Shown: positions 4,727-24,276 of the stretch, one piece after another
Layout of the letters: each line of letters begins with the position of its first letter
How positions within the stretch are numbered: position 1 is the first letter of the stretch
Assembly (NCBI RefSeq): GCF_000341395.1
Contig: NC_020304.1
Coordinates: 3,570,001 to 3,602,000, forward strand
Length of the DNA stretch: 32,000 nucleotides
DNA from: Desulfocapsa sulfexigens DSM 10523
GTDB taxonomy: Bacteria; Desulfobacterota; Desulfobulbia; Desulfobulbales; Desulfocapsaceae
Direction: 5' to 3'
Position numbers and translations under genes: made by a program
Notes under the pieces: generated by a model
What the model was told of the DNA's origin: nothing
The model's database searches: none
Seen by the model: the letters and a program-made list of their open reading frames with translations, nothing else

Positions 4727-4937
4727 GCAGCAGAAAATCAGGCGTTTTCTTATCAAAAAGTCCTGCATACAGGGAATATATTGAACCATTTCCCAGACTA
4801 CAAAAATCACGGAGAGATTAATATGATAGCTAATATTTAATCATTTAAAGGAAGACAAAGTCAAATCTATTCCGAAGTCCCTGACACCACAATACCATCA
4901 CTACGTTTCCAGGTGGACGTTATCTCCGCTCAAGAGG

Positions 4938-5143: not shown

Positions 5144-5325
5144 AAACTCACTATAATTGACATAGTCTCTTTGCAGCATTTTGAAAAGAATGAAAAAAAA
5201 CTTGGAAAAGATTAGTGTAGAAGATCAATCAGATTCTGACAGCAGGTCATGGGGCAAAGGAAGGGCAGGATTAGCTTTTGCAGTCAAACCCCACACCCTA
5301 CTGGACACCTCTGTTCGAGTAGTAA

Positions 5326-6207: not shown

Positions 6208-6245
6208 GGCGAAGCGTTTCCCTCCACCGTGTCCTGGGGGAGTCA

Positions 6246-8011: not shown

Positions 8012-8571
8012 TTTTTATATTCCTTTGTGAAAATTGAAGATTCAAAATTGGAGTTTCCAGTGATATCGAAGCATGAGAAACTTGATCCATGCCATAATCC
8101 AGGCAAATCACCACCACCTCGACCATAACGGACATATTCACCTAACACTTTACCATCAATACGTCTGACAATTCGAGTTTGCTTGCGTGTTACCTGAGGA
8201 TCATTTCTGTGGTAATAAAAAAGGTCACTTTCATAAAAATAATTATCCGTCGGTTTTGCTTTGGATTTGTCTGGTATTTTAATTCTACCAAATTTGTCAA
8301 TTAGGTCAGGCGGTAGCTCCACAGTTTCATAGACTTTTACACCACCATCTTTTGCACAGAGCTTCTCCACTTTGAGATCCCAATATATCTTCTTGCCAGC
8401 TACTTCCCAGAAAGTTCCGCCAAGCCAGACCGAAGAAAGAAGCACTCCAAGAAGGATATGTGAAATCTTTTGTGTTAAGTTCGCAGGCTTCCAATGTTGC
8501 CAGATACGATAGAGTACCCAGCTCACAAACAGCCAAATTGCAATCAGTGTTAATAAATAAATCCCGCTCAT
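8008..8571 (-). CDS. two-TM membrane protein, lipase-associated partner family member I1 (candidate immunity or accessory protein)
   Basis: 187-aa ORF. Its stop overlaps the lipase start (ATGA at 8008..8011). GGAGGG lies 7 nt upstream of the ATG. Two N-terminal hydrophobic helices separated by a basic loop. VYETVE motif and a C-terminal RRIDGKVLGEYVRY motif are shared in pattern with the ORFs at 12931, 17436 and 19443. Confidence 0.75.
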   Translation of the reverse strand: MSGIYLLTLIAIWLFVSWVLYRIWQHWKPANLTQKISHILLGVLLSSVWLGGTFWEVAGKKIYWDLKVEKLCAKDGGVKVYETVELPPDLIDKFGRIKIPDKSKAKPTDNYFYESDLFYYHRNDPQVTRKQTRIVRRIDGKVLGEYVRYGRGGGDLPGLWHGSSFSCFDITGNSNFESSIFTKEYKK

Positions 8572-8640
8572 GCTGCCACCCTCCAGTCAAATCTTGTGCC
8601 GTCGCCGTAATCACCCATAATGAAATCTCCGTGGATAAAT

Positions 8641-8894
8641 GGGGTCAGAGTAATTTTAAACTCCGCCCCATCAAGAAGATAAATAAAACAACAATCGTAG
8701 CAATCCATTATTTTTCACTAAGAGTGAAATAATTAACATCAAAACGGAGAAGCATCAACATCTAACATCTGTTATATTAGTACGTTATAGATGCCTAAGT
8801 GCTAACATCATTGTCATTTCAATGCCTCCAGATGTTTTCCTAAAAATTAAAGATAAAAAATAATAAAAACAACATTTTCAAGCTGTTCTCTGTT
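8641..8894 (-). repeat. conserved cassette-upstream region U (homologous to 22160..22378)
   Basis: Begins with the 32-nt element GGGGTCAGAGTAATTTTAAACTCCGCCCCATC (8641..8672). Contains a 39-nt block (8810..8848) matching 22289..22327 at 38 of 39 positions. Overall similarity is roughly three quarters by eye. Confidence 0.7.
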
Positions 8895-11290
8895 CGGTGA
8901 CAACGGGGTCGGACCAAATTAACAGTTTGAATATTAAACATTTTATCTCCAAAAGCAGATCTTTCTGGGGCTTAAAACACCCTTTTCAGTATCAAAAACA
9001 GTACTGTAAAGAATGTGGTTACAATAAAGCTAAAACCCCGATGGTACTCAACCGCTCTATCTCATCACTCTCAATCCCAACAAGCACAGGGCAAGTGAAC
9101 CTGATCACTCCCTGCATTTCCATAGAGTGCATCATCACCGGCTTCACCAAACAAGTTATCATTGTCAGTATCACCGTAGAGTTCATCATTACCGTTTCCA
9201 CCATACAGATTGTCTTCCCCCTGGCCTCCATATAACGCATCATCACCAATACCGGTTCCATCACTATTATCGCCATAGAGATAATCATTGTCTGATTCCC
9301 CGTATAAGAGATCATTCCCGTCTCCGCCCCGGAGTTGATCCTCACCACTTCCACCATACAATTCATCCATACCTGAACCGGTATTATCAGGGTTATCTCC
9401 TAAAAGAAGGTCATTTCCATCTCCGCCATAAAGTGAATCATCGTCTTCTCCACCGGCAAGACTGTCATTACCTATTTCTCCATGCAATGCATCATTGCCC
9501 AGACCTCCCTGGAGTACGTCATCGCCATGACCACCAAAAAGTGCATCTATACCGTCGCCACCAAAAAGATCGTCATTGTCATCATCGCCATAGAGGACAT
9601 CATTTCCTCCTGAACCGTAAAGCACATCTTCACCGGAGCCACCATGCAATTCATCATTTCCAGTACCACTTAAATCGCCATAATCACCATACAGATGATC
9701 ATCACCATCTCCACCGGAAAGGATATCGTCACCTCCCTCGCCAGCGAGTGCATCGTCACCGATCTCACCATAAAGGGAATCATCTCCTCCTCCGCCAAGC
9801 AGTTGATCATTACCCAGGCCACCGTAAAGTAGATCCTCACCGGTACCTGTGTTATTCCATTCATCTCCTCTTAAGACATCGTCACCATCTCCGCCGAAAA
9901 GCTGATCATTATCAAGGCCGCCATACATATCATCGTTACCCTCTCCACCATAGAGGATATCATTGCCTTCCTGGCCATAAAGCCTGTCAAGATCTTCTTC
10001 TCCAAACAAAACATCATTACCAAGTGATCCCTGAAGAAGATCGTCACCTGTGCCGCCCAGCAGATAATCATCTCCAGCGTCACCAAATAGCCTGTCAACA
10101 CCTTCTTCTCCAATGAGGGTGTCGTTGCCATTTCCCCCCATCAGGTTATCATCACCTATTCCGCCAAAAAGGATATCATTACCGTCTCCACCCCATGCGT
10201 TATCATTATCAGATTCTCCGTAGAGCTTATCATCACCACCCATACCAAGGAGTTGATCATCACCCAGACCACCATAAAGGGAGTCATTACCGTTTATTCC
10301 AAACAACGTATCGGAACCACCATAGCCATACACTGTAAAGGTGGAGAGAGCGGATACGTCACTGTCAAACAGGACAGTTTCACTTCCATCTGCATATTGG
10401 ATACTAAAATGATAATTCCAGGTATCGGCTGTTATCTGGCTCAGACTTGAAACTTCCATCTCATCAGTACCAGCCAGGGAGTTGGTGTTTGGAGTGGGCT
10501 CTACATAGTCAGCCAGATTGAAGCCGAAATCGCCCGAGGAAAAGGAGTTTATGGTAAAATAGAAATTACTGGCCAGGGAAAACAGGTTCAGCGTTTGATT
10601 GGTGGAGTCATAACGAACTCTGTAATTAGCATCTTCGTAGATGTCGCTGTTTTCCTGAATTTGATTAAAGGTGAGACCTGTTATCTGATTGGCTCCATAC
10701 CAGATGGTACCCTGATTATCCGCATCGTCAACAATATCGCCGACACCGATATGGTAGGTGTCATTGCCGATACCGCCGTAAAGGGTGTCTTGAACAAAAT
10801 CATCCACACCATCTATGCCTGCCCCATATAAGATATCATCTCCCCCAGCACCGTTTATTGTATCAATGCCGGTGCCGCCGGAGATGGTATCTTGATCACT
10901 ACTTCCGGTCAGGGTGTCCTGGCCTGCCCCACCTTCTATGCGGGCAATGTTGGAGACTGTTATTCCTGTTAAGTCTATGGTGTTGTCGCCTGCGGTTCCG
11001 GCCAGTATATTTAGTCCTTCTCCACCGTCTATTATTTCTATGGAGTTTTCTGCAAGGGAGAGGGTGTTTACTCGGATGGTGTCATCCAGGTTGCCTCCGA
11101 GGATTTTATCCTCATCACCAGTACCGCCGTTGAAGGTGTCGAAGGCTTCAGGATCTTCATCTGTGCCATGGATGATGAAGGTGTCGTTTCCGGCTCCTCC
11201 GTTCATGGTGTCGCTGCCGGAGCCTCCTTCGAGGATGTCGTTGCCGGCATTGCCGGTTAGGGTGTCATTGCCTGCCATGCCGTAGAGGTG
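8895..11290 (-). repeat. large direct repeat, copy 1 (RTX coding region plus 176-bp downstream tail); partner is 13784..16017
   Basis: Collinear near-identity by eye from the REP-like end (CGGTGACAACGGGGTCGGACC) through the whole RTX region up to the DHLYGM codons (11276..11290 vs 16003..16017). The length difference is 162 nt, explained by two in-frame indels of 108 and 54 nt. Confidence 0.9.
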
Positions 11291-12934
11291 ATCGTCACTG
11301 AGAGCACCAATCAATTTGGCGCTGTCATCTCCTTCCGTGCCAAAGATATAATCTCCATATGGAAGTTCTTCGTCGGGAGGATTGAGTTCAATACCTGATT
11401 GCAGATCATGAAAGTGTTTCTGCTCAGAGTAATTGTGCATGGTGTGGTAGAGGAATTTTGTTCTATCTTCGAAGTATTGTGATGAAAAGTTATCTAAATC
11501 TAACTCGTTGTTTGCATTCAAACTGCTATATTGACTATTCGGGCCCGTTATCGTGATGGGATTCAACCTTTGTAAAGCAAAGCGATATGCCATGCCAGTA
11601 CCATTATCTTGGCTTGCAAACGAAATAATGTCAGACTCTGAGATATCACCTAAAAATGATATTTCATATTGGCCTTGTGAAGATTGGGTTGCATTTCGAA
11701 CTTGAAATATCTTTTCATAGAGTTCTTCTCGAGCAACATCCCCGTTCTTTACGTCGAATGGTGAATAATCCTGTACGCATATTTCACCAAAGGTATTGAT
11801 AACCGTTTCGAGCGTTATATGGTTGTCTCTTCCTTGCCGATATGCATTGAAGACAGGGAGAAGAGATTGAAAAAACTGCGATCCATCCATCGAAGAATAC
11901 ATATCATCCAAGCGGCCAAAAAGGTCATAAACCGCCAGAGAATCTGTCATCTGTTCTTTTCCATGACCCGCAGTTGTTCCTGATAGAGATACAGATTCAA
12001 TAAATATTCCTTGGTGATCTCCTTGCTGACCGAGGGCAAACACACTGTCCATGGTCGTCATTTCCAGGAACTTATCACCAAAAATATTTAATATTTTCGA
12101 ACTCTCAAAAGAATCGCTTCCCCCAAGCATAGCAAAGAGGTTACGGATGTTGGTCTCGCCGTTCCCGCTCAAGCCACTAAGCGCTTCTGTCATATACCCA
12201 GCACCATTTATGGTCACAACATCATCACAGACAGAACCGAAAAGCCGTGAGAATGCAGCGGCCAGATGCCCACCCAAACTATGACCTACTGCTGTAACCT
12301 GTCCTTCAATATCATGGGATAACGCACCATATTGTCTTTCATCCGTGAATATTTCGTTCGAATAGACATCGGTGTTGATAGTGTATACCGTGCCGGTTGG
12401 CATATCGATTATGACATTATCCAATGTCCGCAGGTATAGTTCATATGGGCCGGCTACACCCAGAGGCATAGCAGTTTGTTCTGCCGCAAGTAGAGCCGTT
12501 TTGTCCGTCAACAGCTCCAATTCCGCTGCTTTATAGACGGTATTTGGAGCTGCATTTATTCTTTGCCAGTCGTTATACATGTCGACTATTTGCTTAATCG
12601 CCAGCCCATCGTAAACAATGTCACCACCGTCTGTAACGAGTAGATCGTCAATTCCCGGTTCCGTACCTCGGCATGCATAATGGTATTTGCCTGTGTTCTT
12701 ATTCCGAAAAAGAGTAGCTGAAAAGCCTGTATCGGTGTTGGGTTGGTGATAAATCACTTCCCAATTGTTGACAAAATCTTCAGCTTGCTCAGCTGTCATT
12801 TTGCCCTCAAAAGCGCTGTTTTGTAAAGCGTCTCTTATATCATCCTCAATAGTTAGATCCTCTATTTTATCAAAAAGAACGTAGGCCGCTTCAGACAATA
12901 ACGCCATATCGTAATAAATGGATGAACTGCTCAT
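9071..12934 (-). CDS. giant lipase-RTX protein (class-3/family I.3-like GHSLGG lipase head + hemolysin-type Ca-binding repeats), P2
   Basis: 1287-aa ORF. Head motifs are ACRGT and AVGHSLGGHLAAAF, followed by a unique middle region. Then come two blocks of GGxGxDxUx nonapeptides (several dozen units) separated by a non-repeat beta-rich module. The ORF ends only 13 aa after the last repeat (..GSDQVHLPCACWD). Confidence 0.9.
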   Translation of the reverse strand: MSSSSIYYDMALLSEAAYVLFDKIEDLTIEDDIRDALQNSAFEGKMTAEQAEDFVNNWEVIYHQPNTDTGFSATLFRNKNTGKYHYACRGTEPGIDDLLVTDGGDIVYDGLAIKQIVDMYNDWQRINAAPNTVYKAAELELLTDKTALLAAEQTAMPLGVAGPYELYLRTLDNVIIDMPTGTVYTINTDVYSNEIFTDERQYGALSHDIEGQVTAVGHSLGGHLAAAFSRLFGSVCDDVVTINGAGYMTEALSGLSGNGETNIRNLFAMLGGSDSFESSKILNIFGDKFLEMTTMDSVFALGQQGDHQGIFIESVSLSGTTAGHGKEQMTDSLAVYDLFGRLDDMYSSMDGSQFFQSLLPVFNAYRQGRDNHITLETVINTFGEICVQDYSPFDVKNGDVAREELYEKIFQVRNATQSSQGQYEISFLGDISESDIISFASQDNGTGMAYRFALQRLNPITITGPNSQYSSLNANNELDLDNFSSQYFEDRTKFLYHTMHNYSEQKHFHDLQSGIELNPPDEELPYGDYIFGTEGDDSAKLIGALSDDHLYGMAGNDTLTGNAGNDILEGGSGSDTMNGGAGNDTFIIHGTDEDPEAFDTFNGGTGDEDKILGGNLDDTIRVNTLSLAENSIEIIDGGEGLNILAGTAGDNTIDLTGITVSNIARIEGGAGQDTLTGSSDQDTISGGTGIDTINGAGGDDILYGAGIDGVDDFVQDTLYGGIGNDTYHIGVGDIVDDADNQGTIWYGANQITGLTFNQIQENSDIYEDANYRVRYDSTNQTLNLFSLASNFYFTINSFSSGDFGFNLADYVEPTPNTNSLAGTDEMEVSSLSQITADTWNYHFSIQYADGSETVLFDSDVSALSTFTVYGYGGSDTLFGINGNDSLYGGLGDDQLLGMGGDDKLYGESDNDNAWGGDGNDILFGGIGDDNLMGGNGNDTLIGEEGVDRLFGDAGDDYLLGGTGDDLLQGSLGNDVLFGEEDLDRLYGQEGNDILYGGEGNDDMYGGLDNDQLFGGDGDDVLRGDEWNNTGTGEDLLYGGLGNDQLLGGGGDDSLYGEIGDDALAGEGGDDILSGGDGDDHLYGDYGDLSGTGNDELHGGSGEDVLYGSGGNDVLYGDDDNDDLFGGDGIDALFGGHGDDVLQGGLGNDALHGEIGNDSLAGGEDDDSLYGGDGNDLLLGDNPDNTGSGMDELYGGSGEDQLRGGDGNDLLYGESDNDYLYGDNSDGTGIGDDALYGGQGEDNLYGGNGNDELYGDTDNDNLFGEAGDDALYGNAGSDQVHLPCACWD

Positions 12935-13503
12935 CGTTTTTCCTCACCGGTTTGTTTGTAAGTTTTTTTTAACTCACTAAATTCCTTTTTTTTAATAGCT
13001 GGCTGTCTCAGATGTGTCCAGAATTTAAGATCGCTTGAAGAACCACTATATATTTGCACGCGTTTGGCTAACGTCTCATCGGTCTTAGTATCGATAATGA
13101 GTTCTTCTTGTGTTACGACGGGAAGAATGGGTAAGCGATGTTCAATAAATACCCAACCAATCCGCTGATTTAATTTATACCCCCTTGTAATACCAGTAGC
13201 TTCATAAGAAGGTGACAACTTCTTCCAAGTCAAAGTCTCAGCAACTCCAGGGTTCTCTGCCTTCCACTGTTCCAGAGTCTTATAGACCCAGAAACCTGAC
13301 CTGGTATGGACGAGATATTTGAAGGTGATCAGTGTCGGCAGATAATCCCAGAAAACAAGGTTGTACATTATAAAAGCAACCAACCCGCCCCATAACCATG
13401 CCCGCCTGCCTCTATTCTTAGCCCACCGGACAGCAAGAACGGTAACTCCGATCGAAACTGCCAAATAAAACACAAAAAAAACAATTACCGCTAAACCGAA
13501 CAT
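12931..13503 (-). CDS. two-TM membrane protein, lipase-associated partner family member I2
   Basis: 190-aa ORF. Its stop overlaps the P2 start (ATGA at 12931..12934). GGGGAGG RBS upstream. Layout is TM1, basic loop (RWAKNRGRR), TM2. Motifs VYKTLE and LIIDTKTDETLAKRVQIY. Confidence 0.75.
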   Translation of the reverse strand: MFGLAVIVFFVFYLAVSIGVTVLAVRWAKNRGRRAWLWGGLVAFIMYNLVFWDYLPTLITFKYLVHTRSGFWVYKTLEQWKAENPGVAETLTWKKLSPSYEATGITRGYKLNQRIGWVFIEHRLPILPVVTQEELIIDTKTDETLAKRVQIYSGSSSDLKFWTHLRQPAIKKKEFSELKKTYKQTGEEKR

Positions 13504-13520
13504 TCTTCTACCTCCCCGTT

Positions 13521-13773
13521 AATACGGGGTCGGACCAAGCTAACATGCTGAATGTTAAACATTTTGTCTCCAATAATAGGTGTTTTTATGGCTTAGAGTA
13601 CCCTTTTCAGCATCAAAAACGGTGCTGTAAGCAATTTCAGGCTCTTTCAAAACAGTAGCATCTTTGACTGAAACTATGGAGCGCTTCTGTGCCCGGCTTG
13701 CAAGTTGCTGCTGAATATCTTCTGTAAATGATTTTCTGCCAACGGCACTGGACTCACTCCAATCTTGATTTCT
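13521..13773 (-). pseudogene. 3' fragment of the RAYT-type transposase gene with its REP-like end (type B)
   Basis: Near-identical to 18487..18739 of the intact unit. Encodes only the C-terminal ~73 aa (NQDWSES..KNTYYWRQNV) and lacks the HUH and Tyr motifs. Starts with AATACGGGGTCGGACCAAGC (13521..13540). Confidence 0.85.
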
Positions 13774-13783
13774 CAGCAAGAAA

Positions 13784-16017
13784 CGGTGACAACGGGGTCG
13801 AACCAAGTTAACAGTTTGAATATTAAACATTTTACCTCCAAAAACAGATCTTTCTAGAGCTTAAAACACCCTTTTCAGTATCAAAAACAGTACTGTAAAG
13901 AATGTGGTTACAATAAAGCTAAAGCCCCGATGGTACTCAACCGCTCTATCTCATCACTCTCAATCCCAACAAGCACAGGGCAAGTGAACCTGATCACTGC
14001 CTGTATTTCCATAGAGTGCATCATCACCGGCTTCACCAAACAGGTTATCATTGTCAGTATCACCGTAGAGTTCATCATTACCATTTCCACCATACAGATT
14101 GTCTTCCCCTTGGCCTCCATATAACGCATCATCACCAATACCGGTTCCATCACTATTATCGCCATAGAGATAATCATTGTCTGATTCCCCGTATAAGAGA
14201 TCATTTCCGTCTCCGCCCCGGAGTTGATCATCACCACTTCCACCGTACAATTCATCCATACCTGAACCGGTATTATCAGGGTTATCTCCTAAAAGAAGGT
14301 CATTCCCATCTCCGCCATAAAGTGAATCATCGTCTTCTCCACCGGCAAGACTGTCATTACCTATTTCTCCATACAATGCATCATTGCCCAGACCTCCCTG
14401 GAGTACGTCATCGCCATGACCACCAAAAAGTGCATCTATACCGTCGCCACCAAAAAGATCGTCATTGTCATCATCGCCATAGAGGGTGTCATTTCCTCCT
14501 GAACCGTAAAGCACATCTTCACCGGAGCCACCATGCAATTCATCATTTCCAGTACCACTTAAATCGCCATAATCACCATACAGATGATCATCACCATCTC
14601 CACCGGAAAGGATATCGTCACCTCCCTCGCCAGCGAGTGCATCGTCACCGATCTCACCATAAAGGGAATCATCTCCTCCTCCGCCAAGCAGTTGATCATT
14701 ACCCAGGCCACCGTAAAGTAGATCCTCTCCGGTTCCTGTGTTATCCCATTCATCTCCTCTTAAGACATCGTCACCATCTCCGCCGAAAAGCTGGTCGTTA
14801 TCAAGGCCGCCATACATATCATCGTTACCCTCTCCACCATAGAGGATATCATTGCCTTCCTGGCCATAAAGCCTGTCAAGATCTTCTTCTCCAATGAGGG
14901 TGTCATTGCCATTTTGCCCCATCAGGTTATCATCACCTATTCCGCCAAAAAGGATATCATTACCGTCTCCACCCCATGCGTTATCATTATCAGATTCTCC
15001 GTAGAGCTTATCATCACCGCCCATACCCTGGAGTTGATCATCACCCAGACCACCATAAAGGGAGTCATTGCCGTTTATTCCAAACAACGTATCGGAACCA
15101 CCATAGCCATATACTGTAAAGGTGGAGAGAGCAGATACATCACTGTTAAACAGGATAGTTTCACTTCCATCTGCATGTTGGATACTGAAATGATAATTCC
15201 AGGTATCGGCTGTTATCTGGCTCAGACTTGAAATTTCTATCTCATCAGTACCAGTCAGGGAATTGGTGTTTGGGGTGGGCTCTACATAGTCAGCCAGATT
15301 GAAGCCGAAATCGCCCGAGGAAAAGGAGTTTATGGTAAAATAGAAATTACTGGCCAGGGAAAACAGGTTCAGCGTTTGATTGGTGGAGTCATAACGAACT
15401 CTGTAATTAGCATCTTCATAGATGTCACTGTTTTCCTGAACTTGATTAAAGGTGAGATCTGTTATCTGATTGGCTCCATACCAGATGGTACCCTGATTAT
15501 CAGCGTCGTCAACAATATCGCCGACACCGATATGATAGGTGTCATTGCCGATGCCGCCGGAAAGGGTGTCACGGACATTGTCTTCCTGGTTGGTTAATGT
15601 ACCGCCATAAAGGATATCATCTCCACTTGAACCGGTTATGGTGTCGGCTCCACCTCCGCCTTCTATTCGGTTTATGTGGGTTACTGTGATGCCGGTTAGG
15701 TCTATGGTGTTGTCGCCGCTGGTTCCGGCAAGGATGTTTTCTCCGGCTCCTCCGTCTATTCTTTCTATGGAGTTATCTGCAAGGGAGAGCGCGTTTACTC
15801 GGATGGTGTCGTCCAGGTTGCCTCCGAGGATTTTATCCTCATCACCAGTACCGCCGTTGAAGGTGTCGAAGGCTTCAGGATCTTCATCTGTGCCGTGGAT
15901 GATGAAGGTGTCGTTATCGGCTCCTCCGTTCATGGTGTCGCTGCCGGAGCCGCCTTCGAGGATATCGTTTCCGCCGTTGCCGGTTAGGGTGTCGTTACCG
16001 TCCATGCCGTAGAGGTG
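13784..16017 (-). repeat. large direct repeat, copy 2 (partner of 8895..11290)
   Basis: See copy 1. This copy carries the single hybrid version of the 26-nt AGCCTGTCAAGATCTTCTTCTCCAAT motif (from 14870) where copy 1 has two versions 108 nt apart. Confidence 0.9.
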
Positions 16018-17421
16018 GTCTTCCTTGGAATTGCCTTCAATCAATTCGCCTTCCAGGTTACCGAAAATATAATGCCTGTCTGTAAAATCCGGTACGCCGT
16101 TTCCTGCATAGGCATCTATGCCAAGGGTTGTGTCACAAAACTGTATATCATCGCCGGTGGGGGAAAGTGCATCTTCATGCATTGTTTGATAGAGAAAGAG
16201 GGAACGATCTTCGAGATATTGGGTTGAATATTCGGCAGCCACCAGATTGACATAGCCTGGCTGGTTGCCAGAGATGGCAAAACCAGCTAACGCGTTTAAG
16301 GCAAAAAGAAAAGCGTTGTCATTTTCTGCAGCACTTCGGAGAGCTTCGGCAGAATGCTCATGCAGTGATGTTACCGTCAAACCAGTCAGGCTATGGTCGT
16401 TGGCATACCCGGTTAATTCAATGGCAAGATCAACAAAGACCTGGGTGGTGTCAATACCGGCCTGAAAAACATTATTAACAACCGATAAGGCATGCCCATC
16501 GGGCATTTTTTCCAGAAAAGGAGTAAAGTCATCGGCATTGTTGCTGCTGCTGATGGTTGAAAAAAGGTTGTAGACGTACAGGGATTCGACAAGAGTACCG
16601 ATAGAATGGTAGTGAACGGGGTTGAATGTACTATCGCTGATAGAAATATTGACATCGGCACTCCCGATATCAGTTCCAAGATCGGCGACAAGATCATGGG
16701 GTATATCCCACCAAGTTTCTGAGGATTTGACATTTGTTACCAGGCTGTCGACTCCGTTCTTATTAGACTCAAAGTTGGAATAAGCGTCATAAAGCTCTTG
16801 TGTGATTTCTACTGGCCCAAACAACGATTCACCGGTTATATCATCATAACCAATAAAGGCTTCTTTATAATATCTCCCATTACTTGTCGATAATTCTGGA
16901 GATTCCAGATCTTTTGCACCTGGAGAATTATAAGTGTAACTCTCATCAACAAAATCGGTATAGGTCGCGGTAAAGATCTGAGCTAATGCACCACCCAAGG
17001 AATGACCTGTAACAGTAAGCTTTTCTCCGCTTAATACCTTATCATCTTCTTGAAGCTTTTCGAAAAATGATACCATGTCTTCAAATTGGAGCGGCGTATT
17101 GCCTGCTTTTAGCCCGAGAATATCATCATCCCAATCAGTGCCAATCAATTGGTCGGTTCCACGGATGGCCAGTATTTTTTTACCACTATTAATGTCTTCA
17201 AACAACGTGGCGCTGAATCCGCTTTCTGGACCTATGTTGTATTCGGCGCTGGTGGCAAGGACATTGTAGTGCTCAACAAAATTATCAGCCTGTTTTTGAG
17301 TAAAATTACGGTCATTCTTTAGTGACTTTATAATGTCATCATCCAATGTAGTTTGTATGATATCAATATAGCTTGCATCAGCCAATTCACCAAATTGTAA
17401 CAATTCTGGAATAGTTGCCAT
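13960..17421 (-). CDS. giant lipase-RTX protein, P3 (different lipase head, same RTX chassis as P2)
   Basis: 1153-aa ORF. Head motifs are AIRGT and VTGHSLGGALAQIF. The linker is identical in type to P1. The RTX blocks and the C-terminus (..GSDQVHLPCACWD) are near-identical to P2. Confidence 0.9.
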   Translation of the reverse strand: MATIPELLQFGELADASYIDIIQTTLDDDIIKSLKNDRNFTQKQADNFVEHYNVLATSAEYNIGPESGFSATLFEDINSGKKILAIRGTDQLIGTDWDDDILGLKAGNTPLQFEDMVSFFEKLQEDDKVLSGEKLTVTGHSLGGALAQIFTATYTDFVDESYTYNSPGAKDLESPELSTSNGRYYKEAFIGYDDITGESLFGPVEITQELYDAYSNFESNKNGVDSLVTNVKSSETWWDIPHDLVADLGTDIGSADVNISISDSTFNPVHYHSIGTLVESLYVYNLFSTISSSNNADDFTPFLEKMPDGHALSVVNNVFQAGIDTTQVFVDLAIELTGYANDHSLTGLTVTSLHEHSAEALRSAAENDNAFLFALNALAGFAISGNQPGYVNLVAAEYSTQYLEDRSLFLYQTMHEDALSPTGDDIQFCDTTLGIDAYAGNGVPDFTDRHYIFGNLEGELIEGNSKEDHLYGMDGNDTLTGNGGNDILEGGSGSDTMNGGADNDTFIIHGTDEDPEAFDTFNGGTGDEDKILGGNLDDTIRVNALSLADNSIERIDGGAGENILAGTSGDNTIDLTGITVTHINRIEGGGGADTITGSSGDDILYGGTLTNQEDNVRDTLSGGIGNDTYHIGVGDIVDDADNQGTIWYGANQITDLTFNQVQENSDIYEDANYRVRYDSTNQTLNLFSLASNFYFTINSFSSGDFGFNLADYVEPTPNTNSLTGTDEIEISSLSQITADTWNYHFSIQHADGSETILFNSDVSALSTFTVYGYGGSDTLFGINGNDSLYGGLGDDQLQGMGGDDKLYGESDNDNAWGGDGNDILFGGIGDDNLMGQNGNDTLIGEEDLDRLYGQEGNDILYGGEGNDDMYGGLDNDQLFGGDGDDVLRGDEWDNTGTGEDLLYGGLGNDQLLGGGGDDSLYGEIGDDALAGEGGDDILSGGDGDDHLYGDYGDLSGTGNDELHGGSGEDVLYGSGGNDTLYGDDDNDDLFGGDGIDALFGGHGDDVLQGGLGNDALYGEIGNDSLAGGEDDDSLYGGDGNDLLLGDNPDNTGSGMDELYGGSGDDQLRGGDGNDLLYGESDNDYLYGDNSDGTGIGDDALYGGQGEDNLYGGNGNDELYGDTDNDNLFGEAGDDALYGNTGSDQVHLPCACWD
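16038..16581 (-). repeat. linker-module repeat shared with 6712..7255
   Basis: See 6712..7255. Confidence 0.85.
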
Positions 17422-17435
17422 CTCTAGCCCCCTAG

Positions 17436-18149
17436 CTAATTATCTTTTGATTTCAGTGTGTTATATATCAATACTTCACTATTACCTTTAAATGGGCAAA
17501 GTGTTCCAAGAGAACCATCAACATTGAGCAATGTCGCCCTAAGCCACCCTCTATTCCATCTGTACATTACTCGAATCCCCAAAGTCTCATTATGATGTCT
17601 GTCATTGATTTCCGTATAGATAAATTTATCTATAGTCGGTATTGCCAGGATTCTTTGGTCTTTGTTAGGCTGATAAGCTACCTCATACCTGCTGACTTCA
17701 TCAGGTTGCAATGGCTTCACTGCAAAACAAGGTATTTCCTGGTCAAAGGATTCTTTAAACTTATATTCATCCTTCTTTTTTGGCTTATAGCACCCTTCAG
17801 AACTTGCATCATTTAACCAATAACTACGAAAGAATTCACCGGTTTCTTCAACCTGGTAATCAATATATTTATAATTTTTATTTGGCATGCGGGGAGTACG
17901 TTTTATTCTCAATTCGCCCACATAAAACCCTTCCACATTCTCCACGGTCTTATAAATCTTCATGCCGGATTTAAATTTGCAGAAGTACCAGAAGGTGGGG
18001 TAGCCGATTATCACATCCCAGCTAGGAATTAGAGCCAGAATAATAATTCCAATGATTCTGCCTTTTGTTGATTTTGCGACCAAAACAATTACCAGTAATC
18101 CCAAAAGGAGGTAGATAGCTGCACCAAATATGACAAGAATCTGAATCAT
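17436..18149 (-). CDS. two-TM membrane protein, lipase-associated partner family member I3
   Basis: 237-aa ORF ending 14 nt upstream of the P3 start, with an AGGGGG RBS in the gap. Layout is TM1, KSTKGR loop, TM2. Motifs IYKTVE and YTEINDRHHNETLGIRVMY. Confidence 0.75.
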   Translation of the reverse strand: MIQILVIFGAAIYLLLGLLVIVLVAKSTKGRIIGIIILALIPSWDVIIGYPTFWYFCKFKSGMKIYKTVENVEGFYVGELRIKRTPRMPNKNYKYIDYQVEETGEFFRSYWLNDASSEGCYKPKKKDEYKFKESFDQEIPCFAVKPLQPDEVSRYEVAYQPNKDQRILAIPTIDKFIYTEINDRHHNETLGIRVMYRWNRGWLRATLLNVDGSLGTLCPFKGNSEVLIYNTLKSKDN

Positions 18150-18361
18150 TGCTCTCTCTCCTTTGTTTTTATCTCTCGGTGAAGCATGATAACAAGGACA
18201 AGACTTATCAAGACAATGATTCCGGGAGGTATGAGTAATATATAAAAATTATCTCCATCCTTTCCTTCCCTCATGGCCAGTCCAATCATCCGAACAAACC
18301 AGCTCGTACCAAATAATATCCCGGCATAGCCGACTAATAACAAAACTATTCTGAACATCAT
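18146..18361 (-). CDS. small two-TM membrane protein (71 aa), first gene of the cassette-3 operon
   Basis: Its stop overlaps the I3 start (ATGA at 18146..18149). Two hydrophobic helices. AAAGGTGAGAGA RBS-like sequence before the ATG. Confidence 0.55.
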   Translation of the reverse strand: MMFRIVLLLVGYAGILFGTSWFVRMIGLAMREGKDGDNFYILLIPPGIIVLISLVLVIMLHREIKTKEREQ

Positions 18362-18450
18362 TCTCTCACCTTTACTCTTTTTGAACTACTTTTTACCTCT
18401 TAAGAAAATGCCTAGAAAACCAAAACACGGGGTCAGCAAAACACGCAACA

Positions 18451-18482
18451 CGGAGTCAGAGTAAACTTAAACTCACCCCATC
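18451..18482 (-). repeat. degenerate third copy of the 32-nt element seen at 8641..8672 and 22160..22191
   Basis: CGGAGTCAGAGTAAACTTAAACTCACCCCATC versus GGGGTCAGAGTAATTTTAAACTCCGCCCCATC. It has a 1-nt deletion relative to the others. Confidence 0.6.
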
Positions 18483-18486
18483 TATT

Positions 18487-19434
18487 AATACGGGGTCGGA
18501 CCAAGCTAACATGCTGAATGTTAAACATTTTGTCTCCAATAATAGGTGTTTTTATGGCTTAGAGTACCCTTTTCAGCATCAAAAACAGTGCTGTAAGGAA
18601 TTCCAGGCTCTTTCAAAACAGTAGCATCTTTGACTGAAAGTATGGATCGCTTCTGTGCCCGGCTTGCAAGTTGCTGCTGAATATCTTCTGTAAATGATTT
18701 CCTGCCAACGGCAATGGACTCACTCCAATCTTGATTTCTTGTTAGGACGTTATTGTTTAGCTCAGCTGTTATCCAGTTAGTGTGCTCTTCGCGAAATCTG
18801 TTTTCATCCTGCATTGAAAAATAATCCAACAACATCTTCCTGTTGATAATGCCGTAACGCTTTGGAGGATTTTGAATTTCATTGTAACCACTATTTCTGT
18901 ATTCAGATGGATGTGATACGACGCCTGCCCTGACCATATTAAGATCAATATAGACCATGCATTTTGCAAGATGGTTGATTGTGTCAACGGCCGTGGCATG
19001 ATATCGGTCTTCCCAAAACGAACCTTTCCTCTGTTTCCGACTATTGAACTCCTGAGCTGTTCTTCCTGCAATTAACTGAAGACTTTGTGGAATAGTTTTT
19101 TCCCCTGTATCGACAACAAGTAAGTGGATATGGTTGGAAGTGACAATGTAATTTAGAACGCAAAGCCCATACCGCTTTTTTGCTTCGAATAACCAATAAA
19201 GCCAGCGTTTTCTGTCTTTTTCAAATTTCAGTAAAAACTCCTGCTTATGACATCGGTGTGTGATGTGCCAAACACAACCAGGAATATAATGTCTATTTGC
19301 TCGTGGCATGGTAGTTTAAATTTTCTTAGAAGGTTGTTTTGGACAACAAAAAGTTACCTTTAAGTGTTTATATGGCTTTTATTTCATAATATTTCTTGTT
19401 ATTCCTATATATTGGCTTGGTCCGACCCCGTATT
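18487..19434 (-). mobile_element. RAYT/IS200-like unit bounded by perfect 20-bp inverted repeats (AATACGGGGTCGGACCAAGC)
   Basis: 18487..18506 is the exact reverse complement of 19415..19434. The match breaks on both sides. The repeats enclose the 262-aa Y1 transposase ORF. This is the REP-flanked arrangement typical of REP-associated tyrosine transposases. Confidence 0.8.
18521..19309 (-). CDS. IS200-like Y1 (HUH) transposase, REP-associated tyrosine transposase (RAYT) type
   Basis: 262-aa ORF with N-terminus MPRANRHYIPGCVWHITHRC. HUH motif SNHIHLLV. Tyr motif YIDLNMVRAGVV (compare YxxxNPVRAGLV in COG1943/PF01797 proteins). Carries a ~100-aa C-terminal extension. Confidence 0.85.
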   Translation of the reverse strand: MPRANRHYIPGCVWHITHRCHKQEFLLKFEKDRKRWLYWLFEAKKRYGLCVLNYIVTSNHIHLLVVDTGEKTIPQSLQLIAGRTAQEFNSRKQRKGSFWEDRYHATAVDTINHLAKCMVYIDLNMVRAGVVSHPSEYRNSGYNEIQNPPKRYGIINRKMLLDYFSMQDENRFREEHTNWITAELNNNVLTRNQDWSESIAVGRKSFTEDIQQQLASRAQKRSILSVKDATVLKEPGIPYSTVFDAEKGTLSHKNTYYWRQNV

Positions 19435-19442
19435 CAACCGAG

Positions 19443-20390
19443 TTACCTCCGGTTTTCATGATATTTTTTTGATAATATTTTCAGCAAAGAATTATTTCTC
19501 CCTTGACGCGATCCATAAACATCTATTGATCCGAACAAAATCTTGTCAACAAACTGATAGGCCTGTTTGTCACCAAGCACCTGATGAAAATCAGGATTTG
19601 CACCGCCAAATTCGGAAAGCCAGTTCCCATATGCCATATACCTGCGGGAGAAGGCGATCACCTCGTTTTTCTCCATATCGGTGATGGTGATCTCGTCGGT
19701 GTGTAATAGTCTGGAGGCGGGGTAGCCGGTCTTTACCATGTTGAAATCCACCCGGTAGCGCATGGGTGGCAGTTTGTCCGGGGAAGCGAAGCCCTCAGCC
19801 CGATCCATGATGCTTTGTAATTCGCTTTTCCATGGTTCGTAATATGCACCAAACTCCGTAGAATTTTTTTCTATTTCTCTGATTGTCCGCCACAGTTCTC
19901 TGTTATCTAGACCCTTGCCACCCTTGCGGCGGACCTCCCTTGCACTTTCTTTCATAGCGTCCAGTTCCCGTTTTTTCTGATCCCGAGCTGGTCGCATTTT
20001 TTCACTCTCGGCAAAAGTTGAAGCATCGGCCCGGTACAGATAGATTTTCCCGTCATCGCCATTCACGGCCAGGGCCTGGAGATGCACGCCGTCAAGATAT
20101 TTTTCAACCATGCTTTCACGAAAGTGTTTGTCAAATCCCGGCCAGACATTGTCCTGCCAATACACAGAAATCGGCGCTTCAACGGTCTGATGAATCACCT
20201 GCAAGGGCTGCTTGCCGTAATACTCAAACAGCAAGTTGCACAGGATCGGCCGCCAGAATGGGCCGAAGATGAGCAGCAGCACTCCCAGCCACACCACTGC
20301 CTTCGACTTCGTCCACCGCTTGACGAGATACAACACAATCGCTCCCGCAAGCAGATAAATGGTTACAACAATAAGCAACGCTATTCCCAT
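19443..20390 (-). CDS. two-TM membrane protein, partner family member I4 (orphan: no adjacent lipase gene)
   Basis: 315-aa ORF. Layout is TM1, KRWTKSK loop, TM2. Motifs IHQTVE and ITITDMEKNEVIAFSRRYMAY. Its stop lies 8 nt from the RAYT inverted repeat. Confidence 0.7.
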   Translation of the reverse strand: MGIALLIVVTIYLLAGAIVLYLVKRWTKSKAVVWLGVLLLIFGPFWRPILCNLLFEYYGKQPLQVIHQTVEAPISVYWQDNVWPGFDKHFRESMVEKYLDGVHLQALAVNGDDGKIYLYRADASTFAESEKMRPARDQKKRELDAMKESAREVRRKGGKGLDNRELWRTIREIEKNSTEFGAYYEPWKSELQSIMDRAEGFASPDKLPPMRYRVDFNMVKTGYPASRLLHTDEITITDMEKNEVIAFSRRYMAYGNWLSEFGGANPDFHQVLGDKQAYQFVDKILFGSIDVYGSRQGRNNSLLKILSKKYHENRR

Positions 20391-20464
20391 ACTGTTATTC
20401 TCCCGTGGGTATTTTGGTGTTCAGAAACAGGAAAACTCATTTGCCCCGGCGCGTAACAACGGGC

Positions 20465-20491
20465 GTGACAACGGGGTCGAACCAAGTTAAC
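20465..20491 (-). repeat. REP-like element, type A (GTGACAACGGGGTCGAACCAAGTTAAC)
   Basis: Same sequence as the ends of the tails at 8897..8922 and 13786..13811. Here it stands alone, directly abutting a type B copy. Confidence 0.75.
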
Positions 20492-20493
20492 TT

Positions 20494-20791
20494 AATACGG
20501 GGTCGGACCAAGCTAACATGCTGAATGTTAAACATTTTATCTCCAACAATACGTGTTTTTATGGTTTAGAGTACCCTTTTCAGCATCAAAAACGGTGCTG
20601 TAAGCAATTTCAGGCTCTTTCAAAACAGTAGCATCTTTGACTGAAACTATGGATCGCTTCTGTGCCCGGCTTGCAAGTTGCTGCTGAATATCTTCTGTAA
20701 ATGATTTTCTGCCAACGGCAATGGACTCACTCCAATCTTGATTTCTTGTTAGGACGTTATTGTTTAGCTCAGCTGTTATCCAGTTAGTGTG
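20494..20791 (-). pseudogene. 3' fragment of the RAYT gene with REP-like end (type B, second copy)
   Basis: Near-identical to 18487..18784. Encodes HTNWITAELNNNVLTRNQDWSES...KNTYCWR only and lacks the HUH and Tyr motifs. Confidence 0.85.
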
Positions 20792-20794
20792 AAC

Positions 20795-20960
20795 GCTAAC
20801 ACGGGATCGGACCAAGCTAACAACTTGAATATTAATAATTTTGTATCCAGAAACAGCCGTTACCTGGCCTTAGAGTGCCCTTTTTGCCATCAAAATGTGT
20901 GTCGTAAGAATCTTGACCAGCAACATTAGCATCCTTAACGGTTTATATTTTGGTCAACGA
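20795..20960 (-). repeat. divergent RAYT-3'-like tail with REP-like end (type C) downstream of the DUF4915-like gene
   Basis: GCTAACACGGGATCGGACCAAGCTAAC followed by sequence recognisably related to the RAYT 3' end (..GKKGTLRPGNGCFWIQN in translation). Much more diverged than types A and B. Confidence 0.55.
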
Positions 20961-21037
20961 ACTATTTCAAAGCTCAACGGTTATCCAACCACTGTATTAT
21001 TCACAATAATTAATTTTCTTTTTGTAAAGGATTTTTG

Positions 21038-22123
21038 CTATAACGTAGCTGCTGGCCCAATGGTAATCATCCGTTCTATCTCATCACTTTCAAAACCAAC
21101 AAGTAGAGGACAGATGGAACCCGGTATTGTAATCACGTCATACAATTCCTTGACTACACCTTCAATTATAAGGCTATGTACTATTTCTCCCGACTGAGTA
21201 TCAATAACCTGCAAGCCACAGCACTCCCCCCCAAGTGAAGGCAGCAAGTCATCCAAAACAAGATCTTGAAAAGCTGTACTTCCACGAGGACGTGAGAGAC
21301 CTACAATTGCATAGTTATCTACAAAGGTAAGCCCCCTAAGATAGCCAGGACATTTAGCGACCTGAATAAACTCGCTTTTGTTCAGGTATCCGAATTCACC
21401 CTTACCGGAGTTTAGTAACCAAATTTTGCCTTTGTAAAACCTGGGGGAATGGGGCATGGAAAGCCCTTGGGCGACAATTTCATTGGAGGCGACATCAATA
21501 ACAACCCCTCCATTCTGCCTGTTTTCTTTCTTTCTCCAGCCACCTCTTGAATTGGAGCGGGAAATTGACGTCACAACATATGGTTTTCCATCTCGCATTG
21601 CCAGACCGTTAAGATGGCATCTGTCTTCAGGGACAAGCTCTGAAATAAATTCAGGTTTCCATAGGGGAATAAAACTATGGGTGTTACTTGTTGTGGCCAA
21701 ACAATTAAACAATGTATTCACAAACAGAGGACGATTGTTATACCAGGCAATATCATGTCCACTCACCTTACCTGTTGTAAAGGCGAGCTGGGGAACATAC
21801 ACCTTGTCGTGCCCTTTATAATTTTCTCCAGGACTAGTGACATTATTGAGCTGCCATATTTGATAAAGAGTAGTGGTCAGCAAACGGTTCTTCTCTTCAT
21901 TGAGGCAAAGCCCCATACATCTGGCAAAATTTCTTTCATAAACAGAAAGTGATTGTTGCTTACTATCAAGCCCGACGAAAAGCAATTTCCCGGACTGATA
22001 TGTTGAGAAGGCTAGTGAAACATCATGGCTTCGAAGCCAGTTTTCTATTCCAAAACTTGCCTTGAGAACAAAATGTTTGGATTGAATTACAATCGAATTG
22101 TATTCAGTATTATTATTGGGCAT
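21038..22123 (-). CDS. TIGR03032/DUF4915-like uncharacterised protein (tentative family call)
   Basis: 361-aa soluble ORF. The motifs SMPHSPRFYKGKIWLLNSGKGEFG, RGLTFVDNYAIVGLS and CGLQVIDTQSGE recall that family from memory. An HMM search is needed to confirm. Confidence 0.75.
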   Translation of the reverse strand: MPNNNTEYNSIVIQSKHFVLKASFGIENWLRSHDVSLAFSTYQSGKLLFVGLDSKQQSLSVYERNFARCMGLCLNEEKNRLLTTTLYQIWQLNNVTSPGENYKGHDKVYVPQLAFTTGKVSGHDIAWYNNRPLFVNTLFNCLATTSNTHSFIPLWKPEFISELVPEDRCHLNGLAMRDGKPYVVTSISRSNSRGGWRKKENRQNGGVVIDVASNEIVAQGLSMPHSPRFYKGKIWLLNSGKGEFGYLNKSEFIQVAKCPGYLRGLTFVDNYAIVGLSRPRGSTAFQDLVLDDLLPSLGGECCGLQVIDTQSGEIVHSLIIEGVVKELYDVITIPGSICPLLVGFESDEIERMITIGPAATL

Positions 22124-22159
22124 AACTTGTCAGGCTCTGTTTGTTTTTCCTGCATAAAA

Positions 22160-22378
22160 GGGGCCTGGGTAAAATCAAATTCAGCCCCATCAATAAGATA
22201 AACAAAACGATTAACACCCAAATAGTGAAACATCAACACTTAATACTCGTTATATCAGCATGTTGCATGTAGAGCAATCGCCAACATAATTGTCATTTCA
22301 ATGGCTCCAGATGTTTTCCTAAAAATTTGGCTACAAATAATAATTAAAATAAATTCAAATGTTCTCTGTCCTGTTAAC
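22160..22378 (-). repeat. conserved cassette-upstream region U, second copy (partner of 8641..8894)
   Basis: Begins with GGGGCCTGGGTAAAATCAAATTCAGCCCCATC (22160..22191). Contains the 39-nt conserved block at 22289..22327. Confidence 0.7.
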
Positions 22379-22456
22379 GCAATATTGACTTTTTTTGCTA
22401 CTTTTCACTTTTCCACTAATGACACTCTTTATTTTGACAGGTTTGGTTAATGCGGC

Positions 22457-22676
22457 AATACGGGGCCTGACCAATTTAAAATGCTGAATTTTCATCCTGC
22501 ATAGAAAAGCAATCCAACACCATCTTTCTGTTGATAATGCTGTAAGGCTTTGGTGGTTTTGATTTTCATTGTAACCACTGGTTTTGTATTCAGATGGATG
22601 TGATACAACTCCAGCCCTGACCATATTACCATCAATATAGACCATGCATTTTGCAAGATGACTGAGTGAATGAACA
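22457..22676 (-). pseudogene. degenerate RAYT remnant (REP-like end fused to an internal gene segment)
   Basis: AATACGGGGCCTGACCAAT..ATGCTGAAT is joined directly to sequence homologous to 18801..~18990 of the intact gene (..YIDGNMVRAGVVSHPSEY..). It is frameshifted and truncated. It lies 50 nt from the comM stop. Confidence 0.75.
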
Positions 22677-22725
22677 ACAAGTAGGTGGGCGTCGGTGCCT
22701 TTCCAGATGGTCCTTATTTCAAAGA

Positions 22726-22931
22726 TTATCCATTTCGACGATACTGGACGGCTTCGGCAATATGTGATAATTCAAGAAGTTCCTTATTATCCATATCAGC
22801 GATTGTTCGGGCGATTTTAAGAATACGATGATATCCCCTGGCAGAAAGGCCGAGCTTTTCCACGCTTCTTTGCAATAAACGCTTTGCCGTTGCATCAACC
22901 TTGCAATATTTTTCCACTTCAGCTGGGCCAA
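22726..22931 (-). repeat. attR-like direct repeat: functional 3' end of comM, duplicated at 4938..5143
   Basis: See 4938..5143. Homology ends at 22931/22932. Confidence 0.9.
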
Positions 22932-24246: not shown

Positions 24247-24276
24247 CAGCGCGTTATCCGGCTTGGTTGGACTATG

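Follow-up and report, generated by a model that had tools for sequence, protein, structure and literature searches.

Repeats that recur at gene junctions, nearly all pointing the same way and accompanied by a transposase gene, may be the joints of a cassette array or the remains of a transposon. This question is raised by a 32,000-nt stretch of the chromosome of Desulfocapsa sulfexigens DSM 10523 (NC_020304.1, positions 3,570,001 to 3,602,000; hereafter the window, in whose coordinates all positions are given). A first-pass annotation had described here an integron-like array without an integrase, put together by repetitive extragenic palindromic (REP) repeats and a REP-associated tyrosine transposase (RAYT). 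We find that the repeat is, judged from its sequence, not a REP. It is better described as the terminal 21 nt of the end module of a Y1 transposon that is flanked by terminal inverted repeats (TIRs). The copies lie in an island downstream of comM, and the reading we consider probable is that this island has accumulated one family of such transposons, whose repeats would mark and shape the junctions as debris, together with ordinary recombination, and not by dedicated cassette capture. The pattern itself is real and is present in other bacteria; nothing we found shows that it works in the manner of an integron.

The repeat and the Y1 element

We searched the window with the 16-nt core ACGGGGTCGGACCAAG, allowing up to three mismatches, and obtained nine matches compared to 0.12 ± 0.33 in shuffled sequences. 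They are located at 8903, 13524, 13792, 18490, 19416 (minus strand), 20471, 20497, 20801 and 22460. The nine copies reported earlier, eight of them in one orientation on the plus strand, are thus confirmed. The supposed REP core makes up the outermost 21 nt of a module of about 108 nt, which is found in inverted orientation at both ends of an intact element (Table 1). The gene of this element (18521..19309, minus strand; WP_015405438.1 / AGF79754.1, annotated as 'transposase') codes for 262 aa and matches the Pfam family Y1_Tnp (PF01797) over residues 12-122 with an E-value of 2.6e-10 and 40.9 bits (cutoff 23). By position in the translation we assigned the motifs H60-I-H62 and Y120-I-D-L-N124. 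The inverted arms (18487-18512 and 19409-19434) match at 24/26 positions (92% complementary) and the outer 20 nt are perfect. An intact Y1/HUH gene within inverted repeats, as first proposed, therefore stands, with arms that reach 26 nt. The element is placed within an upstream region shared with other units of the island and splits it after CCCCATC (18480-18487).

No Pfam family besides Y1_Tnp was found in the protein at E ≤ 0.01, and a C-terminal domain of the helix-turn-helix (HTH) type (Bac_DnaA_C, HTH_23, HTH_28) was not detected. The score for the NCBIfam RAYT equivalog NF047646 (62.1 bits, cutoff 80) and that for the IS200 TnpA model NF033573 (21.3 bits, cutoff 55) are both below threshold, and a PDB sequence search gave only a marginal match to ISDra2 TnpA (E about 0.1). 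Rfam returned zero matches at gathering thresholds for the whole window and zero at E ≤ 1 for the element. The protein has more than 8000 homologs with lengths of about 262 aa; many lie on contigs of ~1 kb, as is expected for a repeated mobile element. The 90% protein cluster contains only the intact protein and a 91-aa fragment from 13555-13830. Among the best 120 homolog matches there was no second, non-identical homolog from the 3.99-Mb D. sulfexigens chromosome.

The repeats of RAYT systems are imperfect palindromes of 20-40 nt that form hairpins, usually carry a GTAG or CGTC tag and number tens to hundreds per genome. The repeat in the window is not palindromic and neither tag is present in its sequence. 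The core folds at -0.7 kcal/mol (z +0.33 relative to shuffles), which is no better than chance, the module shows no significant fold on either strand (z +0.5 to -1.1 relative to shuffles) and RNAalifold detected no helix in the module alignment (2 pairs). Because the repeat does not fold beyond shuffles and the protein scores below the RAYT cutoff, the assignment as a REP had to be given up. A conserved hairpin CTTAnA..TTTT..AAAA..TnTAAG was also considered and rejected, with 67.9% of positions paired compared to 67.1% in shuffles and p = 0.12 in a register-free test of own arm against other arm. The same applies to a reading of the module as an attC site, rejected on sequence grounds: its ends are not mutually complementary and there is no significant fold. 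In agreement with the earlier description as an array without an integrase, no integrase domain was found in any tested ORF (open reading frame) of the island or the window; the remaining window genes are syntenic housekeeping genes.

The described kind that appears closest is the TIRYT/TIRtron, which corresponds to TnpA-Y1 subclass 2.1. The TIR core reads GGGGTCGG or GGGGTCGA and agrees with GGGGWSAS at 7/8 positions; the exact form GGGGTCAG is present in a partial copy at 18427-18434. The 262-aa protein shows the variants NHIH, WE and YIDLNM of the class-2 signatures (NH[VYF]H, W[EQ] and Y[IV](E/H)LNP, in proteins of about 238 aa).

Copies of the element in the island

All copies of the repeat in the window are inside the island (8903-22687) and none occurs in the 14 kb of flanking core DNA. 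By their sequence they seem to belong to at least four lineages of one family, here called A to D. The stock of the island is one intact element, two young fragments at 97% identity, one solo module that was copied with a duplication of the RTX genes described below, one 27-nt stub and two old decayed copies. The lineage-B copy at 8895-9014 encodes residues 237-262 of the Y1 protein and ends on its inner side at the family-typical TGTAA(A)G. The copy at 13784-13903 encodes the same residues and is about 81% identical to the intact copy. For lineage C the alignment to the intact copy covers 20797-20895 with 77% nucleotide identity, and RAYT-like coding remains reach 21008. The lineage-D copy ends 31 nt from the right island border. 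Copies of the 3' end of the Y1 gene at the junctions had been noticed before; the young ones are at 97.3% and 97.0% identity and the diverged ones at about 81% and 77%. The first-pass annotation had counted the copies at 8895 and 13784 separately. This does not hold, as both are part of one RTX duplication.

The two young A fragments stop 11 nt (13773) and 3 nt (20791) before the adjoining older B or C copy, so that the observation of two fragments broken just before the next repeat is correct. Homology breaks exactly at the outer ends of modules at 8895/13784 (the left edge of the RTX duplication), 13773-13784, 20491/20492 and 20791-20794. We also compared the window to a JGI metagenome contig (L056; numbers of this form denote loci fetched for comparison), which carries the 190-aa gene and the start of RTX1 at 93.7% identity. 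Here homology is lost 3-4 nt from the terminus at 13519, and the DNA upstream is different and includes a TIRYT with a GGGGACAG TIR. In the window the start codon of the 190-aa gene is 15 nt away from this terminus.

The scan of the modules for promoters and terminators gave zero terminators, and promoter-like sites at consensus level only. One such site (TTGGCA, 17 nt, GATATT) lies within the 3' coding region of the Y1 gene on the minus strand (13714-13742, 18680-18708 and 20687-20715). It is kept in both truncated young copies, where it faces the downstream 190-aa and 315-aa genes. A supposed inverted fragment of the Y1 gene in the RTX tail (9015-9038 compared to 22555-22578, 79%) was rejected, as the similarity is at chance level and tblastn gave nothing on that strand.

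The end module in other genomes

We then looked at the distribution of the 21-nt terminus ACGGGGTCGRACCAARYTAAC in a scan of one genome per species and in a metagenome scan. The former returned no D. sulfexigens stretch, the six exact matches of the window included; the counts are those of other genomes. The terminus was found in 45 genome stretches, where we estimate about 2 by chance, and in 113 metagenome stretches, mostly with 1-3 copies per stretch. The hosts include Desulfobulbaceae, Desulfuromonas, Mariprofundus, Gammaproteobacteria, Aminicenantales, Planctomycetota, Binatia, Nitrospinaceae and others. In the alignment of these sequences conservation begins exactly at ACGGGG and spans about 108 nt to TnTAAG, with conserved CTTAnA, TTTT and AAAA blocks.

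The module occurs in three forms. In the first it is inverted at both ends of ~950-bp elements that code for homologs of the window protein (L001, L002, L034, L041, L053, L094, L126 and others). In the second form two modules stand back to back as an inverted pair of 210-280 bp with no gene, similar to miniature inverted-repeat transposable elements (MITEs); the copies on one contig (L091) are near-identical when judged by eye. The third form is the solo module, whose boundaries are sharp at both ends across the family. A profile search yielded 205 modules in 132 non-redundant loci of other organisms, 84 of them in inward-facing pairs and 121 solo. Adjacent solo modules within 5 kb were co-oriented in 20 cases and opposed in 2 (one pair being partly redundant). 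The pattern seen in the window recurs in these loci; the REP-driven assembly of cassettes that had been suggested is not borne out.

The genes between solo modules are often toxin-antitoxin genes, with AbiEii, RelB/ParE, HTH_3/Gp49, HicB and HigA/HigB as well as MazF, RelE, RHH/ParE, DUF6088, HipA and PIN types. As a raw count they make up roughly 14/35 naive ORFs. Such genes were also observed directly outside an array (L153). The cargo is oriented opposite to the modules in the window and in L004 and in the same direction in L153, L162 and L068. The cargo genes of the window were not found beside modules in any other locus fetched.

Several further arrangements were encountered. Short tandem copies of the terminal 6-20 nt, which we refer to as stutters, were found just outside the TIR in 6/73 modules (1.2 expected) and also next to MITE-like copies. 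In the window they lie at 18420-18460 and 20447-20470. They recur in many unrelated genomes (among them L005, L006, L022, L068, L091, L093 and L153) and none of the mechanisms considered here accounts for them. In L017 (4655-7463) two inverted modules enclose a Tex-like housekeeping gene (782 aa) with no transposase between them, which is either the result of two independent intergenic insertions or a cargo-carrying derivative. In a Desulfobulbaceae contig from a metagenome-assembled genome with four co-oriented modules (L004, 1772-1810) the module encodes the last residues of an AbiEii-type toxin ORF, a parallel to the fusion of the RTX genes in the window.

The island and its borders

Direct repeats of 214 bp, both copies of the comM 3' end (4930-5143 and 22719-22931, 96.7% identical), and not modules, form the borders of the island. 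In three relatives (L050-L052, comM 84% identical) a CHASE5 histidine kinase directly follows comM. The counterpart of this kinase is located at 1594-4665 in the window, and the nucleotide synteny is unbroken on either side of the island. As the synteny is continuous on both sides, with comM directly before the kinase, 5144-22718 is an insertion. The native downstream flank runs on from the left comM repeat and not from the right one. The orphan 3' end aligns to the comM 3' end of L047, L048 and L050, and for L047 the match extends 18 nt beyond the stop codon. The closer relatives L047 and L048 (comM identity 93% and 89%) carry yet other genes after comM, so this is a variable spot. Three different gene sets directly follow comM among the relatives. 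Given these differing gene sets and the bounding repeats, we regard the comM 3' end, as far as the sequences tell, as a hotspot of recombination or integration in this clade. The repeat may have been duplicated by a Campbell-type integration or by a tandem duplication followed by loss. No module was present at the comM locus in the relatives compared (L047, L048 and L050-L052). The expected gain or loss of single cassettes with breakpoints at the repeats was thus not observed in relatives; the island is missing as a whole and its borders are comM repeats.

Our map of the island contains 8 intergenic junctions. Five carry this repeat family, one (6246-6701) carries another hairpin repeat and two carry neither. 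The five junctions with repeats named in the first-pass annotation are therefore right and the total of six is not. All cargo genes are on the same strand, as had been stated, but this is not a property of the island, because the core genes on either side (552-4665 and 22726-26392) share that strand and the GC skew has one sign throughout the window.

Cargo genes and the RTX duplication

Three lipase/RTX units that are paralogs of one another lie in the island on the minus strand: a 187-aa gene with a truncated lipase, a 190-aa gene with RTX1, and 71-aa and 237-aa genes with RTX2. Further cargo consists of a 315-aa protein and a 293-aa protein of unknown function and a DUF4915/TIGR03032 gene. 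The 3' parts of RTX1 and RTX2 including their tails are 97.8% identical with a period of 4889 bp, and the two genes are a segmental duplication that arose by homologous duplication. Both RTX ORFs end in an out-of-frame remnant of the DUF4915 3' end (9019-9093 and 13908-13982), where the alternative frame reads ..CPVLVGIESDEIERLSTIG.. compared to ..CPLLVGFESDEIERMITIG.. in the DUF4915 C-terminus. The tails of the RTX genes and of DUF4915 are thus homologous units, each made up of the DUF4915 3' end, a transposon remnant and a terminus, with 71-73% identity. It is probable that the normal C-termini of the RTX genes are lost: as the ORFs stop in the out-of-frame remnant, they are probably without the normal C-terminal type-I secretion signal. 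RTX1 and RTX2 may be pseudogenes or their products may not be secreted. For D. sulfexigens the locus itself is ordinary, a variable island with much transposon debris and with RTX-lipase genes that are duplicated and probably damaged.

The truncated lipase paralog is cut off at the second, hairpin-forming repeat, whose copy at 6680-6701 is its 3' end. The similarity to RTX2 ends at 6712, and 6712-7248 is 97% identical to 16038-16574 within RTX2. This hairpin is terminator-like, with runs of A or T alongside, and its start GGGGTCAAG resembles TIR motifs of the TIRYT type. An imperfect palindrome of about 35 nt (GGGGTCAGAGTAA..TTAAACTC.CCCCATC) is found at 8641-8672, 18447-18480 and 22150-22190, 30-90 nt upstream of the first gene in three units (p187, p71 and DUF4915); it may act as an operator or a target, or represent the old end of an element. 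In the contig L056 a different TIRYT (1-900; 220 aa, TIR GGAGTTCCGGGGACAG with stutters) is inserted into a lipase-like gene located upstream of the unit of the 190-aa gene and RTX1, so that lipase/RTX arrays have repeatedly been struck by Y1 elements.

Table 1. Position of the features discussed in the text (window coordinates; RAYT aa, residues of the 262-aa Y1 protein).
Feature	Position	Strand	Remarks
Orphan comM 3' end, left direct repeat of the island	4930..5143	-	96.7% identity to 22719-22931
Accessory island, 17.6 kb	5144..22718	.	relatives without it; native order comM, then CHASE5 histidine kinase
Second repeat family, hairpin GGGGTCAAGyCTsCCyTTGACC	6246-6267, 6526-6547, 6680-6701	+, +, -	3 matches, 0 expected
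Truncated lipase paralog (449 aa) and upstream 187-aa membrane protein	6662..8571	-	54% aa identity to RTX2 N-terminus
Upstream region common to DUF4915 upstream (22150-22369)	8632..8893	+	motif GGGGTCAGAGTAA..TTAAACTC.CCCCATC at 8641-8672
Solo end module, lineage B	8895..9018 (module 8903-9009)	+	nhmmer E 1.6e-20; about 81% to intact left end
Out-of-frame remnant of DUF4915 gene 3' end	9019..9093	-	RTX1 ORF stops inside
RTX1 (1287 aa, about 20 RTX repeat hits) and upstream 190-aa gene (UWK_03222)	9071..13503	-	
Truncated young copy, lineage A	13519..13773	+	module and RAYT aa 189-262; 97.3% to 18485-18739
Solo end module, lineage B, and DUF4915 3' remnant	13784..13982	+	duplicate of 8895-9093, within 97.8%-identical 1.1-kb duplication
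RTX2 (1153 aa, lipase-like N-terminus) and upstream 237-aa and 71-aa ORFs	13960..18361	-	
Partial 'stutter' copies of terminus ACGGGGTCA, ACGGAGTCA and shared upstream motif	18420..18484	+	abut left inverted repeat
Intact TIR-flanked Y1 element, 948 bp	18487..19434	-	left module 18490-18597, gene 18521-19309, right module 19325-19431
315-aa protein, function unknown (UWK_03228)	19443..20390	-	zero Pfam/NCBIfam matches; singleton cluster
27-nt stub of lineage-B terminus	20465..20491	+	100% to 13786-13812; nhmmer positions 1-23; butts onto next copy
Truncated young copy, lineage A	20492..20791	+	module and RAYT aa 176-262, internal stop; 97.0% to 18485-18784
Old decayed copy, lineage C	20795..21008	+	module and RAYT aa 172-261 remains, internal deletion; nhmmer E 4.4e-21; tblastn 30%
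DUF4915/TIGR03032 gene, intact	21038..22123	-	Pfam E 2.7e-129; NCBIfam 407 bits
Old decayed copy, lineage D	22460..22687	+	degenerate terminus, then RAYT aa 104-170; about 90% over internal part
comM, YifB-type Mg-chelatase-like ATPase	22719..24246	-	Pfam; 100% identity to D. sulfexigens DSM 10523 protein; last 214 nt are right direct repeat

How the pattern may have arisen

The origin of the repeats from the Y1 element, their position at gene junctions and their common orientation, all first proposed in the earlier annotation, are supported by the copies listed above. There are several possible ways in which such a pattern could have come about. In the course of events that we consider probable, at least four lineages of the family would have landed in one orientation in a dispensable island. 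Insertion would be in one orientation relative to replication, as for IS608 and ISDra2, which insert on the single-stranded lagging-strand template; co-orientation is what strand-specific single-strand transposition predicts, an established property of these two elements that we extend to the present family. Elements may further have inserted preferentially beside or into resident termini, which would give nested arrays and terminal stutters. The termini would then anchor deletions into neighbouring DNA, and the truncations 3-11 nt before the next terminus, like the fusion of genes to modules, would be their trace. Finally, co-oriented copies would be a substrate for homologous recombination that duplicates and reshuffles the gene blocks between them; of this the RTX duplication itself is visible in the window.

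Some observations do not sit easily with transposon debris and ordinary recombination. To our knowledge nobody has studied the chemistry by which TIR-flanked Y1 proteins transpose, and for this reason the orientation bias and the self-targeting are borrowed from the biology of IS200/IS605. The modules have no stable single-strand structure and their internal palindrome shows no significant covariation, unlike the hairpin ends of characterised Y1 transposases. The sharp inner boundary of the solo modules across the family looks like that of a discrete mobile or recombining unit rather than the outcome of random decay. Furthermore, breakpoints exactly at termini and co-oriented arrays around small gene pairs in unrelated genomes also fit an active site-specific process.

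Such a process would make the module of about 108 nt a stand-alone recombination site acted on in trans. The Y1 enzyme would cut the same strand at two co-oriented modules, one module and the intervening genes would leave as a single-stranded circle and re-insert at another module, and arrays of the integron/attC kind would result. Y1 transposases naturally use two ends of the same orientation on one strand, as is established for IS608, and the co-orientation of adjacent solo modules (20:2), their boundaries and the loss of homology at termini, within the window and relative to L056, all fit. Arrays with spacers of 0.3-1.4 kb hold toxin-antitoxin pairs (L153, L068, L162, L127, L004 and L142), and the ribosome-binding site of the 190-aa gene directly adjoins one terminus, so that this gene has no room for a promoter of its own. 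We nevertheless consider an active cassette system unlikely. The same cassette was not found in two contexts with both borders at modules, the orientation of cargo to module differs between arrays, and the toxin-antitoxin genes just outside the array in L153 suggest that modules may simply populate toxin-antitoxin islands. In the window the junction repeats are mostly dead copies of the gene that differ in length and age, modules are missing from two junctions of the island, and the island is bordered by comM repeats. No integrase, attC-like site or foldable site was found.

It is equally doubtful that amplification alone produced the island. One ancestral unit of gene, tail and module would then have been multiplied by unequal crossing-over and have diverged, with the modules as passengers and no repeated insertions. 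The 4889-bp period of RTX1 and RTX2 with their nearly identical tails, the homology of the RTX and DUF4915 tails (DUF4915 3' end, RAYT remnant and terminus), the related upstream regions of p187, p71 and DUF4915, and the fact that several repeat classes, the comM repeats included, are at about 97% identity would all be explained. However, the copies fall into four lineages (97%, about 81%, about 77% and about 90% to the intact copy) that are truncated at aa 189, 176, 237, 172 and 104. The young A fragments lie directly beside old B or C modules, which requires new arrivals and not copying alone, and the intact element interrupts the shared upstream region after CCCCATC.

A classical REP/RAYT system, in which a domesticated single-copy RAYT upholds a genome-wide population of REPs and of hairpin-forming REP doublets (REPINs) and the locus is one cluster of it (a REPtron with neighbours like bacterial interspersed mosaic elements, BIMEs), is very improbable: the gene does lie between inverted repeat copies as RAYT genes do, close homologs are named RayT in some databases and the best 120 matches hold no second, non-identical D. 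sulfexigens homolog, but the protein stays at 62 bits where the RAYT equivalog demands 80, the repeat is neither palindromic nor folding and lacks the tag, the terminus is low-copy in other genomes, and the patchy spread across phyla, the ~1-kb contigs and the fragments are traits of an insertion sequence.

Within the HUH/Y1 family the TIR-flanked Y1 transposases are one of the largest branches, and we know of no mechanism that has been worked out for them. The locus and its relatives offer a conserved substrate, a 21-nt terminus inside a 108-nt module, in three natural forms (full element, MITE-like pair and solo). The regularity that is newly added across the family is that solo ends next to each other share one orientation and frequently flank toxin-antitoxin genes. 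This makes the movement of genes by a Y1 enzyme between its own end sequences a directly testable question. If the unlikely case of an active module were true, integron-like arrays of toxin-antitoxin and other accessory cassettes would arise in many phyla by a second route that needs no integrase, and the comM island would be one such array.

Comparison with known systems

The likeness to integrons and to clusters of attC sites lacking integron-integrases (CALINs) lies in co-oriented repeats of about 100 nt between small accessory genes, many of them toxin-antitoxin pairs, and in the 190-aa ORF of the window, which begins 15 nt past a repeat. In contrast to these systems the window has no IntI and no attC architecture (no R''/R' cores and no foldable site), the orientation of the cargo is variable and the repeats at the junctions consist of transposon ends or of dead transposase genes. 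With IS200/IS605 (IS608, ISDra2) the element has the catalytic domain family in common, and these provide the best precedent for insertion biased by strand and orientation. They differ by having no TIRs, subterminal hairpins and a tetra- or pentanucleotide target, and the window protein is nearly twice as long.

REP/REPIN-RAYT systems, reportedly introduced by Nunvar in 2010 and by Bertels and Rainey in 2011, share with the window a Y1 gene between inverted copies of a short repeat that is also found without the gene, and the back-to-back pairs elsewhere resemble REPIN doublets. Here the repeat is non-palindromic and untagged and is low-copy where this is measurable, the gene family is like that of an insertion sequence and the protein is under the RAYT cutoff.

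TIRYTs or TIRtrons are RAYT-like genes with TIRs that share GGGGWSAS, and in some genomes their TIR repeats are 'single, dimeric or grouped' (Di Nocera et al. 2013, PMC3733652). TnpA-Y1 subclass 2.1 takes in most TIRYTs; its members are long, have no association with REPs and have spread horizontally (Quentin et al. 2018, PMC6006769); TIRYTs largely equal this subclass (PMC6006769) and the Group 1 RAYTs of Bertels (PMC5581495). In the searchable literature we found nothing on TIR-flanked Y1 transposases or TIRYTs after 2018. As far as this literature shows, the conserved end of about 108 nt, the co-orientation of solo ends and the frequent toxin-antitoxin flanking are undescribed for TIRYTs. 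The window element departs from them in its TIR, where GGGGTCGG/GGGGTCGA agrees with 7/8 positions of GGGGWSAS, in the Y motif YIDLNM instead of YI(E/H)LNP, and in that an HTH-type C-terminal domain was not detected. It resembles them in a RAYT-like Y1/HUH protein longer than IS200 TnpA, in TIRs with GGGG-W-S in place of REP hairpins, in solo, paired and clustered TIR copies, in a patchy, horizontal spread and in motifs close to the class-2 signatures (NHxH, WE and Y-x-x-x-N).

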